From a virus, in the UHGV virus genome UHGV-0033546: DNA of 64,000 bases; one strand, 5' to 3'. Under the pieces are notes generated by a model. The model was not told where the DNA came from. It ran no database searches and saw only the letters and a program-made list of their open reading frames with translations. This document shows positions 5,097 through 53,596 of the stretch, in pieces (the first letter of the stretch is position 1; the number at the start of each line of letters is the position of its first letter). The translations under genes were made by a program, and so were the position numbers.

Positions 5097-5833
5097 TTCC
5101 ACTCACCATTATAATCTTTTTTCGCAATATGAGTTTCGCCAGTATTCCACCAATGGTCAACCAAATAAAACTGATTTTCGTACACATGAAGACTTCCGAC
5201 ATTCCATATAATAGAACCTGCTTTATACTGTCGTGATGGGTCGCCTGCATTCAAATCAGATACTAATTTATCTAGTACGTATTTTTGCCACGCATAATCA
5301 TTACGATAGCCTGCCCAGCAGTCATTGCTTCTCATATTAACAACTGCATTGACTTTCTTATCACGAATCAGGTACTGTACTGTATTAGTACACATGAAAT
5401 CTGACATGCCGTCTTTGTTGTAGTCAAACTGCATAGATGGACGAGTATAAATCATGATACCACGCCGAGAATCAGGATTTTGACCAAGTTCAGCTAAACA
5501 CATATCATACTGGGCATAGTTATTTTCTGACCAGATAGCCCAACCATAATTCGAGTTAATTTCGCCTTTAGAAGATGCTACCTGCTGCCAAATCTTTGGT
5601 GTTTCACCTGGAATATCTTTAACAAACAAGCTCTTAGATTTATACCATTCAAGTTCACGCTGAATGTATTCATCATTAAGAGCGCCAAAAATAAACGGTT
5701 CATCTGCTACAAATGATGCGCCAATAATTTCAATAGTTTTAACACCAGTTTTATCAACTACGAAATCTTTTTCCTTTAATGCAAGCCCCAAATGAAGACG
5801 GATTTCTTCAACTGTCATAGAGTCACTAATCAT
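5093..5833 (-). CDS. 42: gp42 dCMP hydroxymethylase, 246 aa
   Basis: 246 aa; sequence from MISDSMTVEEIRLHLGLALKEKDF onward matches T4 gp42 as recalled. Confidence 0.92.
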   Translation of the reverse strand: MISDSMTVEEIRLHLGLALKEKDFVVDKTGVKTIEIIGASFVADEPFIFGALNDEYIQRELEWYKSKSLFVKDIPGETPKIWQQVASSKGEINSNYGWAIWSENNYAQYDMCLAELGQNPDSRRGIMIYTRPSMQFDYNKDGMSDFMCTNTVQYLIRDKKVNAVVNMRSNDCWAGYRNDYAWQKYVLDKLVSDLNAGDPSRQYKAGSIIWNVGSLHVYENQFYLVDHWWNTGETHIAKKDYNGEWK

Positions 5834-44907: not shown

Positions 44908-45060
44908 TTTGTTCTCTCTAGATTTGGGCCATTCCATGGCACATGAATTGTCCATTCCTGTATTTACCCATTACCGCGCCCGGGCTCGACCTTATTACAG
45001 GTTGGCGGGAATCCCTCACAGAATCATGAGGTCCAGGTTGTTCCCATGTTATTTACTGTA

Positions 45061-45534
45061 TTATTTAAATGATTTGACGTACTGAACAGAACCTTTGCTA
45101 TTCACGAAAGCGATTTTACCATTTTTGTTATACATGGTAGCAGTACGCTGATAGCCATAAGTTTGCTTACCAGATTGATAACCAACTAATGCAAAATTAT
45201 CTTCGCCCATTTTATTCTGTTTAGCACGAATACGCTCATGACCGTGAGCCATAAGAACCTTAGCATCGCCAGTTGCAATGGATCTACGAGTTTTTTCATC
45301 TTCAACTGTATTAACAAAGTCGTCAAATGAATCAAATTTAGCATGAGATTTATTATACAGTTTTCCATCTACTGCATAATTATATCCCTGTACATCCATC
45401 TCAACTTCTGTACCATCATCCAATACAGCAGTGATTTTTTGACCTTTTTTAAATTTCAAAAGATCAGTAAAAGATTCAGCAATAATTTGAGAATTAATAG
45501 CTGCTTCAGTGATAAATTCTTGATATGTTTTCAT
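45061..45534 (-). CDS. internal-protein-like head protein with capsid-targeting leader, 157 aa
   Basis: N-terminus MKTYQEFITEA matches the T4 IP capsid-targeting sequence (cleavage expected after ...E-A); body unlike T4 IPII/IPIII by length. Confidence 0.6.
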   Translation of the reverse strand: MKTYQEFITEAAINSQIIAESFTDLLKFKKGQKITAVLDDGTEVEMDVQGYNYAVDGKLYNKSHAKFDSFDDFVNTVEDEKTRRSIATGDAKVLMAHGHERIRAKQNKMGEDNFALVGYQSGKQTYGYQRTATMYNKNGKIAFVNSKGSVQYVKSFK

Positions 45535-49505: not shown

Positions 49506-49781
49506 TTATTTCATATTATTGAAATATTCTTCTGCGATTTCGTCGTTATCATGGTAAACTTTAGAAGACAGTTTAACATAACCTTCAGCAGTGAACATGT
49601 TAATCACAACCTTTACAGTATACCACTGACCGTCTTCATTACCCATTACTGCGTAAGTTTCAAACATCGGATGATCAGGACCGATAACTTTAATATCATT
49701 CACTGTACGACCAAAATCTTCTGAAACGCATTTCATAAAGAAGTTAAACAGTTCGCCGTAATTATCCATTTCATTCTCCAA
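49506..49781 (-). CDS. hypothetical acidic protein, 91 aa
   Basis: Track ORF with early promoter upstream. Confidence 0.5.
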   Translation of the reverse strand: MENEMDNYGELFNFFMKCVSEDFGRTVNDIKVIGPDHPMFETYAVMGNEDGQWYTVKVVINMFTAEGYVKLSSKVYHDNDEIAEEYFNNMK

Positions 49782-49812: not shown

Positions 49813-49841
49813 ATAGTACCATGGAAGAACAGTCTTGTAAA
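49813..49841 (-). promoter_or_regulatory. early-type promoter: -35 TTTACA (49841-49836), spacer 17, -10 TACTAT (49818-49813)
   Basis: Minus-strand reading; strong AT-rich UP element. Confidence 0.45.
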
Positions 49842-49980
49842 CAGTTTTGTGAAAAAATTTTTAAAAATTTTTAGGGAATTCTAGGGCAGGGAGGGGAAAT
49901 TAAAAGGTAGGATAATATATTATAAAGGGTATAAACTAAATGATGCCTAGAAAGGCCCGGAAAGGCCTAGATACCAAAAA

Positions 49981-50002
49981 GCCCCAACCTTTCGGCTGGG
50001 GC
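49981..50002 (-). terminator. intrinsic terminator, 9-bp stem with GAAA tetraloop and U5 tract, immediately after the IP-like gene
   Basis: Transcript GCCCCAGCC-GAAA-GGUUGGGGC followed by UUUUU; near-identical twin at 50540-50561. Confidence 0.6.
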
Positions 50003-50010
50003 TAAGAATG

Positions 50011-50484
50011 TTATTTGATTTGTTTAGCAGACCAAATGCGGTCTTTAATAATTTTTTGGATGTCTTCAACATACTCTAGGTCATGAGCATGTGGATTATC
50101 TTTAAAACTATGAGCTCGCGCAAGTTTCTGGCCTTCGGTCTTAATTACCAAAAGTTCTTTAAGGATAGCTTCATATTTAGAGATAATTCCTTTAACAATA
50201 TTTTTCTCTTGTGCGGCTTTAGGATCTGCTTTAGGAGCAGGTTTACCCGAAGCCTTTGCAAAAGCAGCTCCAGTAGCAACTAGACTTTTCCAGGCCATAC
50301 TAACCGCATTTCCCGTAAATCCTTCTGCTTTCATGTCGCGAGCAAATTGGAATCGTGATTCGTCAGAAGCATCTTTATAAGAATATTTACCCGCTGCAAT
50401 GGCTGCTTTTGCAACAGCTTGAATTTCGGTGCTAGATGCTTCATTTAACACCGCTTCATTTAAAAATTGAGTATATGATTTCAT
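50011..50484 (-). CDS. internal-protein-like protein with capsid-targeting-like leader, 157 aa
   Basis: N-terminus MKSYTQFLNEA follows the IP leader pattern; Ala/Lys-rich body; own late promoter and flanking terminators. Confidence 0.5.
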   Translation of the reverse strand: MKSYTQFLNEAVLNEASSTEIQAVAKAAIAAGKYSYKDASDESRFQFARDMKAEGFTGNAVSMAWKSLVATGAAFAKASGKPAPKADPKAAQEKNIVKGIISKYEAILKELLVIKTEGQKLARAHSFKDNPHAHDLEYVEDIQKIIKDRIWSAKQIK

Positions 50485-50524
50485 CTTATTTCCTGTTTTA
50501 ATTCGTGGATTTAATATACTACTA

Positions 50525-50532
50525 TATTTATA
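50525..50532 (-). promoter_or_regulatory. late promoter box TATAAATA
   Basis: Exact consensus on minus strand 41 nt upstream of ATG 50484; AGGAAA SD in the UTR. Confidence 0.55.
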
Positions 50533-50539
50533 CTAAAAA

Positions 50540-50561
50540 GCCCCAACCTTTCGGTCGGGGC
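50540..50561 (-). terminator. intrinsic terminator, 9-bp stem with GAAA loop and U5 tract (twin of 49981-50002)
   Basis: Transcript GCCCCGACC-GAAA-GGUUGGGGC followed by UUUUUAG; closes the tRNA/small-RNA transcription unit. Confidence 0.6.
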
Positions 50562-50868
50562 TAAGCCTTGCGGCAACCTTGTCGGGGTTCCACCTGCTAA
50601 GGCAAGTGTTTGTACGAAACGCCGGGATTCGAACCCGGTTATTAAGTAGTTGACGCTACTCAATATTTTTAAAAGGCCATATCTCGACCATATCCGAACG
50701 TTCCGTCAAAAACGCTACTCGGCTTACGGTAAAGATATTTCCTCGAATCGATAATTCGGTGCGCCGTTTCAGCTGTGATAGTAAAGAACCAGAACACAGT
50801 AAAACTGTGGGAGGAACTATACTCCAGGGAACATCAGTCCGACGACTTACCGGTAGCGACCCGGTTTC
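50562..50868 (-). ncRNA. candidate stable small RNA(s) downstream of the tRNA array (T4 species 1/2-like region), boundaries uncertain
   Basis: No minus-strand ORF; contains a perfect tRNA T-arm-like element (CCGGG-UUCGAAU-CCCGG at 50620-50636) and several GC-rich stems. Confidence 0.35.
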
Positions 50869-51219
50869 TTAATATTCTTTTAAAGTATCAATCTGTTCAC
50901 GACGTTTACGCCATAAATCAATTGCTTCATACGCAGATTCAGCATTTCGAATTAGTCGGCATTTGTGTAAAGACTTATGATTTTGATATTGTGTAGATAA
51001 CGGAATTTTATCTAAAAGGTCTTTACGTTCAAAGTATTCGTAACCATCTAAGCCAAATGAACGATTTTTAAGAAATTGCCAATGACCATATTCGTTTTCG
51101 ACATAAACATAATCCGCGTGTTGATAAAGCAAATTAATTACACGTTCAGAAATAACAGTGTCATTGTGATTAAAATAAAATGTTAAATCATGAACTACTA
51201 AATAAACATTACCTTTCAT
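50869..51219 (-). CDS. hypothetical protein, 116 aa
   Basis: Track ORF with ATG at 51219, directly downstream of tRNA-Arg. Confidence 0.5.
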   Translation of the reverse strand: MKGNVYLVVHDLTFYFNHNDTVISERVINLLYQHADYVYVENEYGHWQFLKNRSFGLDGYEYFERKDLLDKIPLSTQYQNHKSLHKCRLIRNAESAYEAIDLWRKRREQIDTLKEY

Positions 51220-51235: not shown

Positions 51236-51311
51236 TGGTCGAGGCAGTAGGGATCGAACCTACGACCTAGGACTTAGAAGGTCCTTGCTCTTCCTTCTGA
51301 GCTATGCCCCG
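51236..51311 (-). tRNA. tRNA-Arg (anticodon UCU), CCA encoded
   Basis: Manual cloverleaf: acceptor CGGGGCA/TGCCTCG, T-arm GTAGG-TTCGATC-CCTAC, anticodon loop CUUCUAA. Confidence 0.85.
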
Positions 51312-51315
51312 TAAT

Positions 51316-51391
51316 TGGGGTGACCGATGGGAGTCGAACCCATGACTACGAGAATCACAATCTCGAGTTCTACCAACTGAACTACGGCCAC
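51316..51391 (-). tRNA. tRNA-His (anticodon GUG), CCA encoded
   Basis: Manual cloverleaf: acceptor GTGGCCG/CGGTCAC, D-arm GTTC-AGTTGGTA-GAAC, anticodon loop UUGUGAU, T-loop TTCGACT. Confidence 0.8.
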
Positions 51392-51505
51392 ATTAATACC
51401 TACTCCAACAATCAAGATGTCTTCACACGAAATTAAGAGAAGAATGATCAGTTCAACCCTTATAATCGCGTCAAGTAGATATTAATGTGACAGTTGTCAC
51501 AAATT

Positions 51506-51580
51506 TGGCGGACATGCATGGATTCGAACCATGGACCAATTGATTAACAGTCAACTGCTCTACCACTGAGCTACACATCC
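51506..51580 (-). tRNA. tRNA-Asn (anticodon GUU), CCA encoded
   Basis: Manual cloverleaf: acceptor GGATGTG/CATGTCC, anticodon loop CUGUUAA, T-arm CATGG-TTCGAAT-CCATG. Confidence 0.8.
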
Positions 51581-51584
51581 AAAT

Positions 51585-51671
51585 TGGTGGGGAGTGATGG
51601 AGTCGAACCACCCGAGTCGCAATGACAATGGATTTACAGTCCACACCGCTACCTCTACGGGATAACTCCCC
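51585..51671 (-). tRNA. tRNA-Tyr (anticodon GUA), type II with long variable arm, CCA encoded
   Basis: Acceptor GGGGAGT/ACTCCCC, anticodon loop CUGUAAA, 15-nt variable arm, T-loop TTCGACT. Confidence 0.75.
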
Positions 51672-51684
51672 CTAATTCATAATT

Positions 51685-51759
51685 TGGTGGCCCTGGGTGG
51701 AATTGAACCACCATCTGGCGATTATGAGTCGCTTGCTTGAACCTTCCAGCTACAGGGCC
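51685..51759 (-). tRNA. tRNA with anticodon CAU (Met, or Ile if lysidine-modified as in the T4 tRNA-Ile)
   Basis: Acceptor GGCCCTG/CAGGGCC perfect 7 bp, anticodon loop CUCAUAA, T-arm GGTGG-TTCAATT-CCACC. Confidence 0.8.
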
Positions 51760-51760
51760 T

Positions 51761-51836
51761 TGGTGCTGATTGACGGAATCGAACCGCCGACATCCTCATT
51801 ACAAGTGAGGTGCTCTACCTACTGAGCTAAATCAGC
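51761..51836 (-). tRNA. tRNA-Thr (anticodon UGU), CCA encoded
   Basis: Acceptor GCTGATT/AATCAGC, anticodon loop CUUGUAA, T-loop TTCGATT. Confidence 0.85.
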
Positions 51837-51841
51837 AAAAC

Positions 51842-51931
51842 TGGCGGAGGCGATAGGATTTGAACCTATGAGTCGCCGGAGCGACTGCCGGTTTTCAAGA
51901 CCGGTGCATTAAACCACTCTGCCACGCCTCC
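51842..51931 (-). tRNA. tRNA-Ser (anticodon UGA), type II, CCA encoded
   Basis: Acceptor GGAGGCG/CGCCTCC, anticodon loop CUUGAAA, long variable arm. Confidence 0.85.
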
Positions 51932-51933
51932 AG

Positions 51934-52007
51934 TCTCCATACAAGGATTTGAACCTTGGACCTCCTGATCCCAAATCAGGCGCTCTACCAAACTGAGCTA
52001 CACGGAG
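51934..52007 (-). tRNA. tRNA-Pro (anticodon UGG), CCA not encoded
   Basis: Acceptor CTCCGTG/TATGGAG, anticodon loop UUUGGGA; 3' end is 2 nt from the tRNA-Ser 5' end. Confidence 0.85.
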
Positions 52008-52017
52008 TAAATTAAAT

Positions 52018-52091
<74 letters not shown>

Positions 52092-52096
52092 AAATT

Positions 52097-52183
52097 TGGT
52101 GCGAGAAGTGGGACTCGAACCCACAAGGAAATCATTCCGCAGCATTTTAAGTGCTGTGCCTTTACCAATTTGACCATTCTCGC
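52097..52183 (-). tRNA. tRNA-Leu (anticodon UAA), type II, CCA encoded
   Basis: Acceptor GCGAGAA/TTCTCGC, anticodon loop CUUAAAA, long variable arm. Confidence 0.85.
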
Positions 52184-52184
52184 G

Positions 52185-52257
52185 CTGGGAATAAAGGACT
52201 CGAACCTTTGCATCCTGGAATCAAAATCCAGTGCCTTACCAACTTGGCTAATTCCCA
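52185..52257 (-). tRNA. tRNA-Gln (anticodon UUG), CCA not encoded
   Basis: Acceptor TGGGAAT/ATTCCCA, anticodon loop UUUUGAU; 3' end is 1 nt from the tRNA-Leu 5' end. Confidence 0.85.
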
Positions 52258-52354: not shown

Positions 52355-52648
52355 TTACCATTTATGATAATACATATTTACGATGCATTCAAGACCCAAA
52401 GGATTCTTGAAAATATCATATTCAAGAGGACCTTTTTCTGTTTCAATAAAGAAATCAAAATTTACTGTATTAAATTTACGATCTTCCTTCACTAATTTAA
52501 CTTGAGAAGATGAACGGTCAATGTAAACCTTTTCAACTTCAAAATATGTTAAAATGCCATAATCATCAATCAAGGCTTTAGCTGCTTCTTGATCATATTT
52601 ATATCCATTTTCAATGGATGATACTTTCGCATAAAGAATCATTATCAA
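52355..52648 (-). CDS. hypothetical protein, 97 aa
   Basis: Track ORF. Confidence 0.45.
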   Translation of the reverse strand: MIMILYAKVSSIENGYKYDQEAAKALIDDYGILTYFEVEKVYIDRSSSQVKLVKEDRKFNTVNFDFFIETEKGPLEYDIFKNPLGLECIVNMYYHKW

Positions 52649-53046
52649 CCTTCATCAACAATAGTGTGCGTATTGGCATTTACAATTTGCCACCAATCAA
52701 AGCGATTAGAACCACACATCGCTTTGTTTTCATTTTCTTTGATAATGTCACGAAGTTCATCTTCAGTGGAGGCTTTCGCGATTAAATCAGTATACCCACC
52801 ACGTGGATAATAATTATCACCTGCAAACAAAAGGAAATTTACCTTCCCGGAAGGAACATATGCTTCCTTAGGATACTTGTTTCCTGCGTGGTCAACCACT
52901 TCAATATAACGGTAAGGAATATCGGTTCTTTCAACCCATTGCCATGCCGCTGCAGGGGAATCGAAAGCATCTACACCTAAACGATTATCTTCATCTTTAG
53001 ATGGATTATTTTCGTAATCCGCATATACATAGTATTCAACGTTCAT
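52645..53046 (-). CDS. hypothetical protein, 133 aa
   Basis: Track ORF. Confidence 0.5.
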   Translation of the reverse strand: MNVEYYVYADYENNPSKDEDNRLGVDAFDSPAAAWQWVERTDIPYRYIEVVDHAGNKYPKEAYVPSGKVNFLLFAGDNYYPRGGYTDLIAKASTEDELRDIIKENENKAMCGSNRFDWWQIVNANTHTIVDEG

Positions 53047-53308: not shown

Positions 53309-53596
53309 TTACAAAAGATTTTTAGCAATAATCTTGAGATGTGCTGCAGAAATGTGTTTAGCTTTAAACAACGCAGTTTCTTCAGCAGGAGAGATAACGA
53401 TTGTAGCACCATCCTTTTTAGCAGACCACCCATCACCTAGGTAAACAGTACCTTTGATTTCTTCGCCATCAACCAGACTAATCATTGGTTTACCTTCTCG
53501 TCCTTTATTTGCTTTAATAACTTCAGAAGTAAGAGTAGCCTCGGTAATGGTAGAAACCGGGGTAGTTGTAGAAGTAAATTCTTTGAAAGTTTTCAT
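53309..53596 (-). CDS. ipI: internal protein I (IPI), 95 aa precursor with capsid-targeting leader
   Basis: 95 aa; leader MKTFKEF...; body ...ATLTSEVIKANKGREGKPMISLVDGEEIKGTVYLGDGW matches T4 IPI as recalled; position next to 57B. Confidence 0.7.
   Translation of the reverse strand: MKTFKEFTSTTTPVSTITEATLTSEVIKANKGREGKPMISLVDGEEIKGTVYLGDGWSAKKDGATIVISPAEETALFKAKHISAAHLKIIAKNLL

Follow-up and report, generated by a model that had tools for sequence, protein, structure and literature searches.

In the 64,000-nt stretch of the viral genome UHGV-0033546 analysed here (the window), which is from a Tequatrovirus, a 157-codon open reading frame (ORF157) lies on the minus strand between two nearly identical hairpins, within positions 49981 to 50561. 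We conclude, with a probability of about 0.7, that this interval is an insulated late transcription unit of a T4-like phage, that its product is packaged in the manner of an internal protein (IP), and that the unit is gained and lost through its flanking repeats. An initial annotation had described a self-contained cassette with its own late promoter box and two almost identical hairpins, each followed by a U5 tract. Coordinates, shuffled controls and RNA folding bear out each of these elements, and the anatomy of terminator, late promoter, leader-bearing gene and twin terminator stands. The elements, all on the minus strand, are as follows.

50530..50565, minus strand: proximal 36-nt repeat, the predicted intrinsic terminator of the tRNA operon, RNA AGCCCCGACCGAAAGGUUGGGGCU and then a U-tract
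50562..50539, minus strand: proximal hairpin within this repeat
50540-50561, minus strand: 22-nt form of the proximal hairpin, GCCCCAACCTTTCGGTCGGGGC
50532..50011, minus strand: late promoter and ORF157, between both hairpins
50532..50525, minus strand: TATAAATA, a box of the T4 late promoter type, lying 41 nt upstream of the ATG
50494..50489, minus strand: Shine-Dalgarno sequence AGGAAA, 4 nt before the ATG
50484..50011, minus strand: ORF157, 157 amino acids, starting MKSYTQFLNEA, family phrog_2280
50484..50455, minus strand: capsid-targeting-like leader MKSYTQFLNE|A in the first 10 codons, with Y4, F7, L8 and E10
50003..49980, minus strand: distal hairpin, within the distal repeat
49981-50002, minus strand: 22-nt form of the distal hairpin, GCCCCAACCTTTCGGCTGGGGC
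49971..50006, minus strand: distal 36-nt repeat, the cassette's own predicted terminator, RNA AGCCCCAGCCGAAAGGUUGGGGCU and then a U-tract

The 22-nt hairpins occur as two copies only in the 64 kb when up to three mismatches are allowed, and not once in 100 shuffled sequences. The direct repeat is in fact longer than the 22 nt originally described, extending over 36 nt with 33 of 36 positions identical (three mismatches). As minus-strand RNA, each copy forms a perfect 10-bp stem that includes one G.U pair and seven G-C pairs, closed by a GAAA tetraloop and with U5 immediately downstream. Calculated folding energies are −20.6 kcal/mol for the distal and −20.3 kcal/mol for the proximal copy (z-scores of −4.5 and −3.9, respectively), and no shuffled sequence folds as well; the plus-strand versions contain an internal mismatch and reach an energy of only −16. 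The copies differ at two bases, GA versus AG in the RNA, both of which pair with UU, and the stem is therefore preserved on the transcribed strand only. A GC-rich stem-loop running directly into a U-tract on the transcribed strand is the arrangement of a Rho-independent terminator, and the annotation of phage D5505 has an ARNOLD terminator call at the equivalent hairpin. In T4, a single copy of the proximal-type hairpin is found 50 nt past rnaC, the last stable RNA gene of the tRNA operon, and is followed by the flank of gene e.8 with its early-type promoter and no gene between. This arrangement identifies the proximal hairpin as the probable terminator of the tRNA operon and the T4 site as an empty one.

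Downstream of the proximal hairpin the elements follow in the order hairpin, U5, AG, TATAAATA, 30 nt, AGGAAA, 4 nt and ATG, with the first three bases of TATAAATA overlapping the end of the proximal repeat. A sigma70 scan between hairpin and ATG gave no match, leaving the late box as the sole promoter-like element there. We read TATAAATA as a promoter because of its position and because a hairpin-TTTTT-R-G-TATAAATA junction is conserved in other genera: GGGGCTTTTT(A/G/T)GTATAAATA is kept in phages PNJ-9 and LHE83 and in Klebsiella phage KpV477, and the near-identical GGGGCTTTTTTATAAATA is present in VR20.

To place the cassette among its relatives, we typed the arrangement of the locus over ~770 records, using an evenly spaced sample of 771 records together with junction queries; the sample gave proportions matching the junction counts. 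Searching with 1.9 kb around the site gave matches in 757 phage records, mostly named Escherichia, Shigella and Yersinia phages. Five states were distinguished, the fifth being other cargo; the other four are listed here.

ORF157 only, the window type: ~278 records by junction query, for example EC121, P8 and CHD2BS1
ORF157 and ORF187 cassettes in tandem: ~125-127 records by junction query and sample, for example D5505 and PYps32T
ORF187 only: ~26 records, for example CHD94UKE2 and RB69 (where the gene is frameshifted), the count being the 151 records with an rnaC-to-ORF187 junction minus the tandem records joined by the search tool
Empty: ~77 records from the evenly spaced sample, for example T4, T2, F2, HEMP5 and BCPShso_001

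A query with the T4 junction returned 231 apparently empty sites, a count inflated by half-matches joined across the 559-nt cassette, and the sample figure was used instead. ORF187, a paralogue of ORF157, begins MKTYAEFLTEA, and its cassette ends in a different hairpin, CCCTATCTAAATGATAGGG. In Mosigvirus, the position directly behind hairpin and TATAAATA is taken by a 154-residue homologue (ORF154; OLB35 and O157 typing phage 3) or, in PNJ-9, by a 208-residue relative (ORF208) with the leader MYTFNEFLAETEVITEA, and in Gaprivervirus VR20 and Dhakavirus LHE83 an unrelated membrane-like protein of 184/185 residues (phrog_2143) stands behind the same type of junction. Alternative cargo between the hairpins, which the initial annotation had raised as a possibility, is thus found across relatives, although most of it consists of diverged members of phrog_2280.

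The initial annotation had also likened the cassette to a portable module. In the sense of movement around the genome this did not hold: tblastn located relatives of ORF157 in 512 records, in every one of them as a single copy at one place, and the position after the tRNA cluster is the same in Tequatrovirus, Mosigvirus and a Klebsiella Jiaodavirus. On this comparison the family is an old single-copy resident of this locus that does not move between loci. The Jiaodavirus homologue, in KpV477 (MKFKEFLAEA), lies after the tRNA cluster; the hairpin ahead of it is a different one, but the ...GGGGGCTTTTTAGTATAAATAT junction is the same. As KpV477 and the other genera share this layout, the combination of terminator, late promoter and gene is ancestral, and the empty site of T4 is most simply read as a loss; the twin repeat is a feature of the Tequatrovirus and Mosigvirus lineages.

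Two members of the family are disrupted: the phrog_2280 gene of RB69 is frameshifted (1808-2370 of our locus L010, annotated ORF149c/148c), and that of KpV477 contains an in-frame stop (2997-3530 of L044). Such apparent pseudogenes would be compatible with a dispensable, host-specific function. In OLB35 (L013, 2440-2560), ~45 nt of the spacer found upstream of ORF187 (TTTTTAGTTTGAATC...GCTGTTAC) is kept after the ORF154 terminator and is followed by TATAAATA and an unrelated 105-residue gene; the retained spacer may be what is left of an ORF187 cassette that was replaced.

The positions at which the cassettes come and go were read base by base in 13 loci, and every junction examined fell within a terminator. 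Homology to T4 ends and resumes inside the repeat (C)TTAGCCCC[GA/AG]CCGAAAGGTTGGGGCTTTTTRGTWT, and in Tequatrovirus the return from the ORF187 cassette to the T4-type flank falls at GGGCTTTTTGGTATC. Direct evidence comes from Mosigvirus: the hairpins of O157 typing phage 3 read GCCCCTTCC-GAAA-GGTCGGGGC on the proximal side and GCCCCTTCC-TTAT-GGTTGGGGC on the distal side. The empty site of phage G2285 consists of the rnaC-side context and GCCCCTTCC, followed by the distal loop TTAT, the distal 3′ arm and the distal flank; its single hairpin is a chimera, with the crossover in the shared 5′ arm. In Gaprivervirus, phage 212 is without the ORF184 cassette of VR20 and has its junction in GGGCTTTTTTATA, a sequence present both after the proximal hairpin and after the unrelated distal hairpin of VR20. 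A Tequatrovirus empty site with a distal-type 'AG' hairpin was searched for and not found, the sole single-piece match being of the uninformative 'GA' type.

The empty sites of T4, T2, F2 and HEMP5 are on different rnaC/rnaD haplotypes, and those of T2, F2 and HEMP5 are closest to the haplotypes of occupied phages. The T2 segment is 98.3-98.6% identical to the window and EC121, and that of HEMP5 is 98.6% identical to CHD2BS1; the T4 segment is 91-94% identical to every other locus compared and close to none. That empty and occupied sites share haplotypes argues for more than one event or for free reassortment of the site. Deletion and amplification of DNA between repeats as short as 6-10 bp, with one copy left behind, has been shown experimentally for T4 (Srikant 2022, PMC9391042).

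Several observations weigh against our interpretation. The TATAAATA octamer is not above chance in the AT-rich window (9 found versus 10.5 expected), and an intrinsic terminator would usually have a longer tract than U5. The distal hairpin of KpV477 is unrelated to its proximal one, so that the twin repeat is not required for a gene at this site, and the expectation that relatives carrying the gene would also carry the flanking repeats fails for the Jiaodavirus lineage. Among ten ORF157-bearing loci, the boundaries of point-mutation mosaics do not cluster at the hairpins, the steps in divergence falling inside rnaD and in the 3′ third of ORF157; the repeats are therefore end points of insertions and deletions and not general hot spots of exchange. 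The empty allele can moreover spread by ordinary flanking recombination, which makes the number of independent deletions uncertain. Finally, comparison with Pfam, PHROG, PDB and BFVD links ORF157 to no named IP, either by sequence or by fold. Homology between IPs outside the leader is not expected (PMC3012670), however, and this result does not exclude ORF157 as one of them. The interpretation in the initial annotation accordingly stands in part: recombination at the repeats removes or adds a gene, with junctions in the terminator and one chimeric hairpin, but the cassette is not portable in the sense of moving around the genome.

A simpler explanation for the hairpins would be that they are two terminators of shared ancestry without any role in rearrangement, the presence or absence of the gene being due to ordinary recombination in flanking genes only. 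The unclustered mosaic breakpoints, the invariable synteny and single copy of the gene, and the Jiaodavirus homologue without a twin repeat are all in its favour. This explanation still requires an origin for the empty allele, however, and it is at odds both with junctions that lie within the terminator repeat in three genera, the chimeric hairpin included, and with the empty sites of T2, F2 and HEMP5 on the haplotypes nearest to occupied phages. We consider it unlikely. A dedicated system that recognizes the GCCC/GGGC hairpin, whether integron-like, linked to a homing endonuclease or dependent on a cruciform nuclease, is very unlikely. Of the T4 deletion end points in one set, half had GGGC/GCCC motifs (Mosig et al. 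1998, cited through Arbiol 2010), the ORF187 cassette meets the T4-type flank at GGGCTTTTT, and a further T4-like contig has the hairpin next to an early promoter in its tk region. Yet no recombinase or endonuclease gene is in or adjoining the cassette, the hairpin has only its two copies in the 64 kb, very similar hairpins act as plain terminators in unrelated contigs, and microhomology recombination suffices in T4 (PMC9391042).

The wider distribution of the hairpin was surveyed by IMG/VR scans, which gave few T4-like loci. The exact 30-nt hairpin pattern occurred in four IMG/VR contigs, in each at the locus downstream of rnaC only. One IMG/VR T4-like contig (L026) has, at 5103-5130 on the plus strand in its tk region, the hairpin GCCCCTTCCGAAAGGTTGGGGC with a U-tract after a 100-residue reading frame and before a T4 early-type promoter. 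Unrelated IMG/VR phage contigs of 6-38 kb carry GCCCC(GG/TG)CCGAAAGGTTGGGGC and a U-tract in conserved surroundings of their own (L017, L020-L024, L027, L028, L034-L037, L040, L042 and L043). Near-identical hairpins in unrelated contigs indicate that terminators are commonly built in this way and that the hairpin sequence alone does not mark the cassette.

We turn to the product of the gene, which is recognizable as a candidate IP by its N-terminus. Truncation and suppressor analysis of the capsid-targeting sequence (CTS) of IPIII established that ten residues suffice, with positions 4 and 7 serving targeting and positions 8 and 10 serving processing by the gp21 protease at L/I-x-E (PMC9026906). 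The ORF157 leader has all four mapped determinants (Y4, F7, L8 and E10), and a second L-x-E site (L-N-E) follows at residues 13-15. This leader is the most conserved feature of phrog_2280, being kept in members that are 25-43% identical overall and 25-40% identical outside it, and the mature protein is basic (pI 9.4-9.5), as internal proteins are. ORF157, ORF154, ORF187 and ORF208 all belong to phrog_2280, to which PHROG assigns no function; none of the four has a Pfam match, and phrog_2280 is the only PHROG match of ORF157. The family is tiny: a word-indexed search gave 13 clusters, an exhaustive profile search of 1.84 billion proteins gave 13 representatives, and the named members are all from T4-like phages. 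An AlphaFold2 model of ORF157 (pLDDT 74) is all-helical; its leader is disordered, residues 18-71 form an N-domain of four helices, and a Lys/Pro/Ala linker is followed by a long helical hairpin. A fold search with this model returned no PDB match at E below 1, and from BFVD only the relatives of ORF157 itself.

It is conceivable, though clearly less probable than packaging, that ORF157 is a late cytoplasmic or structural accessory protein whose N-terminus merely resembles a CTS. Homology to IPI (PF11634), DUF7412 and the PHROG 'internal virion protein' families is lacking, apart from a marginal N-terminal match for the Mosigvirus homologue, 60 of 60 sampled records annotate it as a hypothetical protein, and in Gaprivervirus and Dhakavirus the neighbouring position behind the late promoter is occupied by a membrane-like protein that is not an IP. 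Against this are the presence of four of four experimentally mapped CTS positions, the preservation of the leader above all other parts of a divergent family, and the fact that known internal proteins are by definition unrelated beyond the leader (PMC3012670). We therefore retain prohead-core targeting, gp21 cleavage, packaging and injection as the most likely fate of ORF157. A role as an anti-defence factor would be speculative, guided by analogy with Ip1, Ip2 and Ip3, each of which inhibits a distinct GmrSD type IV restriction enzyme (PMC12373910).

Two further observations concern the ORF157 sequence. Between 50020 and 50170, the 3′ third of the gene, the window departs from all nine of the relatives compared by 5-8 positions in every 40 nt, as against 0-2 in the remainder; this stretch is a local mosaic patch within ORF157. 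A predicted 94-residue protein (P0013) encoded on a Logan contig of 2898 nt consists of the C-terminal part of a trna.3 homologue fused to the last 30 residues of ORF157, matching window regions 52645-53046 and 50011-50100; it appears to be the product of a natural deletion that removed the whole tRNA/rnaC/rnaD region and most of ORF157.

Taken together, these data lead us to propose the following scheme. The stretch between the tRNA/rnaD/rnaC operon and e.8, which is hyperplastic, would hold an insulated late unit. The proximal hairpin would stop early and middle transcription of the tRNA operon, shielding the cassette from read-through, and ORF157 would be read only from the late promoter TATAAATA placed right after the U-tract. 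The second terminator copy would then end this late transcript ahead of the early promoter of e.8. The leader would direct ORF157 to the prohead core, where the gp21 prohead protease would cut after E10 and possibly E15, and the mature protein would be packaged and injected with the DNA as an accessory IP, with an anti-defence role probable by analogy with Ip1-3. Homologous or microhomology recombination between the 36-bp direct repeats would delete the cassette and leave one terminator, as in T4 and T2, and the reverse reaction or unequal exchange would add cassettes, as in the ORF157-ORF187 tandem. A broader extension, in which the terminator/late-promoter junction is a conserved landing pad in at least five Tevenvirinae genera for injected, rapidly diversifying phrog_2280 proteins (ORF157, ORF154, ORF187 and ORF208) that come, go and duplicate there, constituting a third IP locus with new anti-defence factors against strain-specific targets, is at present doubtful.

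This scheme has precedents in T4-type phages. PeSLs and PmSLs are cassettes of a stem-loop and an early or middle promoter, respectively, that flank accessory reading frames and for which excision as mini-circles has been described (Arbiol 2010, PMC2839356; Comeau 2014, PMC4122927). Like these, the window cassette has a terminator stem-loop followed directly by a promoter, Shine-Dalgarno sequence and ATG, its copies flank single accessory reading frames in hyperplastic regions, insertions and deletions between close relatives start and end in the elements, and the proposed mechanism is recombination between flanking copies with excision and integration. It differs in that its promoter is of the late TATAAATA class and not of the sigma70-like early or Mot middle class, in sharing with the tRNA operon a strong terminator that is GC-rich and GAAA-capped, and in having two copies in the window instead of many dispersed ones. 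The tk-region element of L026 is a unit of the classical PeSL-like kind, with this stem-loop used at a different locus.

The T-even IP loci (ipI; ipII/ipIII), whose polymorphism and CTS are known from Repoila 1994 and from Mullaney & Black 1996 as reviewed in PMC9026906 and PMC3012670, resemble the ORF157 locus in encoding small basic proteins with an MK(T/S)YxxF(I/L)xE leader and an L/I-x-E gp21 site, and likewise in that the protein is non-essential, the content varies among close relatives and several diverged versions exist at one locus. According to Arbiol 2010 (PMC2839356), Repoila et al. 1994 noted analogous elements at the two classical IP loci, which Arbiol 2010 characterizes as early-promoter elements whose stem-loops are weak and AT-rich; the window's own ipI locus, flanked on either side by early-type promoters, fits that description. 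Unlike those loci, the one described here is a third, downstream of rnaC and not beside 57B or e, and it combines a late promoter with a GC-rich terminator. Unlike T-even IPs, phrog_2280 carries no internal-protein annotation in the records sampled and is a candidate family for packaging. ORF157 shares with Ip1, Ip2 and Ip3 the leader and the logic of a diversifying injected set, but neither sequence nor fold, and any likeness of function is by analogy only. As in the microhomology deletions of T4 (PMC9391042; GGGC end points in Mosig 1998), one repeat copy remains and accessory genes are lost, but the repeat here is 36 bp long and a predicted terminator, and the outcome is a natural polymorphism, not a laboratory event. 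Integron gene cassettes with their attC sites provide an analogy only: they too are single reading frames bounded by imperfect palindromes, with one or two cassettes after a fixed platform, but here there is no integrase, no attI and no sign of site-specific chemistry, and each cassette has its own promoter. No description of the rnaC-downstream locus or of the phrog_2280 family, and no virion proteomics on the protein, was found in the searchable literature, which excludes Repoila 1994 and Miller 2003.

The surrounding genes are listed below, again all on the minus strand.

53596..53309, minus strand: IPI, identical to that of T4 (PF11634)
52257..51236, minus strand: 11 tRNA genes, upstream of rnaD and rnaC
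51219..50869, minus strand: 116-residue reading frame of phrog_3355 without a Pfam match
50758..50869, minus strand: homologue of rnaD (species 2 RNA), matching T4 rnaD by blastn at 50758-50784 and 50820-50869, with conserved ends and a divergent centre
50613..50751, minus strand: homologue of rnaC (species 1 RNA), 98.6% identical over all 139 nt of T4 rnaC, upstream of the cassette
49813..49841, minus strand: early-type promoter of the next gene, TTTACA-17-TACTAT, outside the cassette
49506..49769, minus strand: e.8 homologue, 97% identical to T4 e.8, the conserved downstream neighbour
45534..45061, minus strand: DUF7412 internal protein with the leader MKTYQEFITE|A

The tRNA cluster (51236-52257, minus strand) of 11 genes, which include His, Asn, Tyr and Met, compares with eight genes in T4, and the homing-endonuclease gene segB is absent from this interval. 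The 116-residue reading frame between tRNA-Arg and rnaD is present in T2 and most relatives; in T4 both RNA genes are adjacent. Just downstream of the distal terminator, at 49946-49970, a short direct repeat GAAAGGCC occurs twice and could form a 5-bp AGGCC/GGCCT hairpin, which is probably not functional because the T4 version has two substitutions and the pairing may not be conserved. The intergenic region at 44940-45060 (minus strand), which follows the DUF7412 internal-protein gene, has an unusually high GC content; Rfam gave no match for it, and it is no more structured than shuffled sequences (z = 0.49). Rfam gave no family for the hairpins or for rnaC and rnaD.

In conclusion, the locus is a late-promoter variant of the PeSL and IP-locus shuffling known for T4-type phages, and it extends the PeSL idea to late promoters. 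It provides clean natural examples of terminator repeats as end points of deletion and insertion, including a chimeric hairpin. Because Ip1-3 each disarm a different GmrSD enzyme, any further protein with a CTS leader is a candidate injected counter-defence factor. Our analysis flags phrog_2280 as an unannotated and probably packaged family, present in ~500 sequenced T-even-type phages, many of them candidates for therapy. As its presence, absence and copy number vary among near-identical phages, including those relevant to therapy, the family is a testable candidate determinant of host range.

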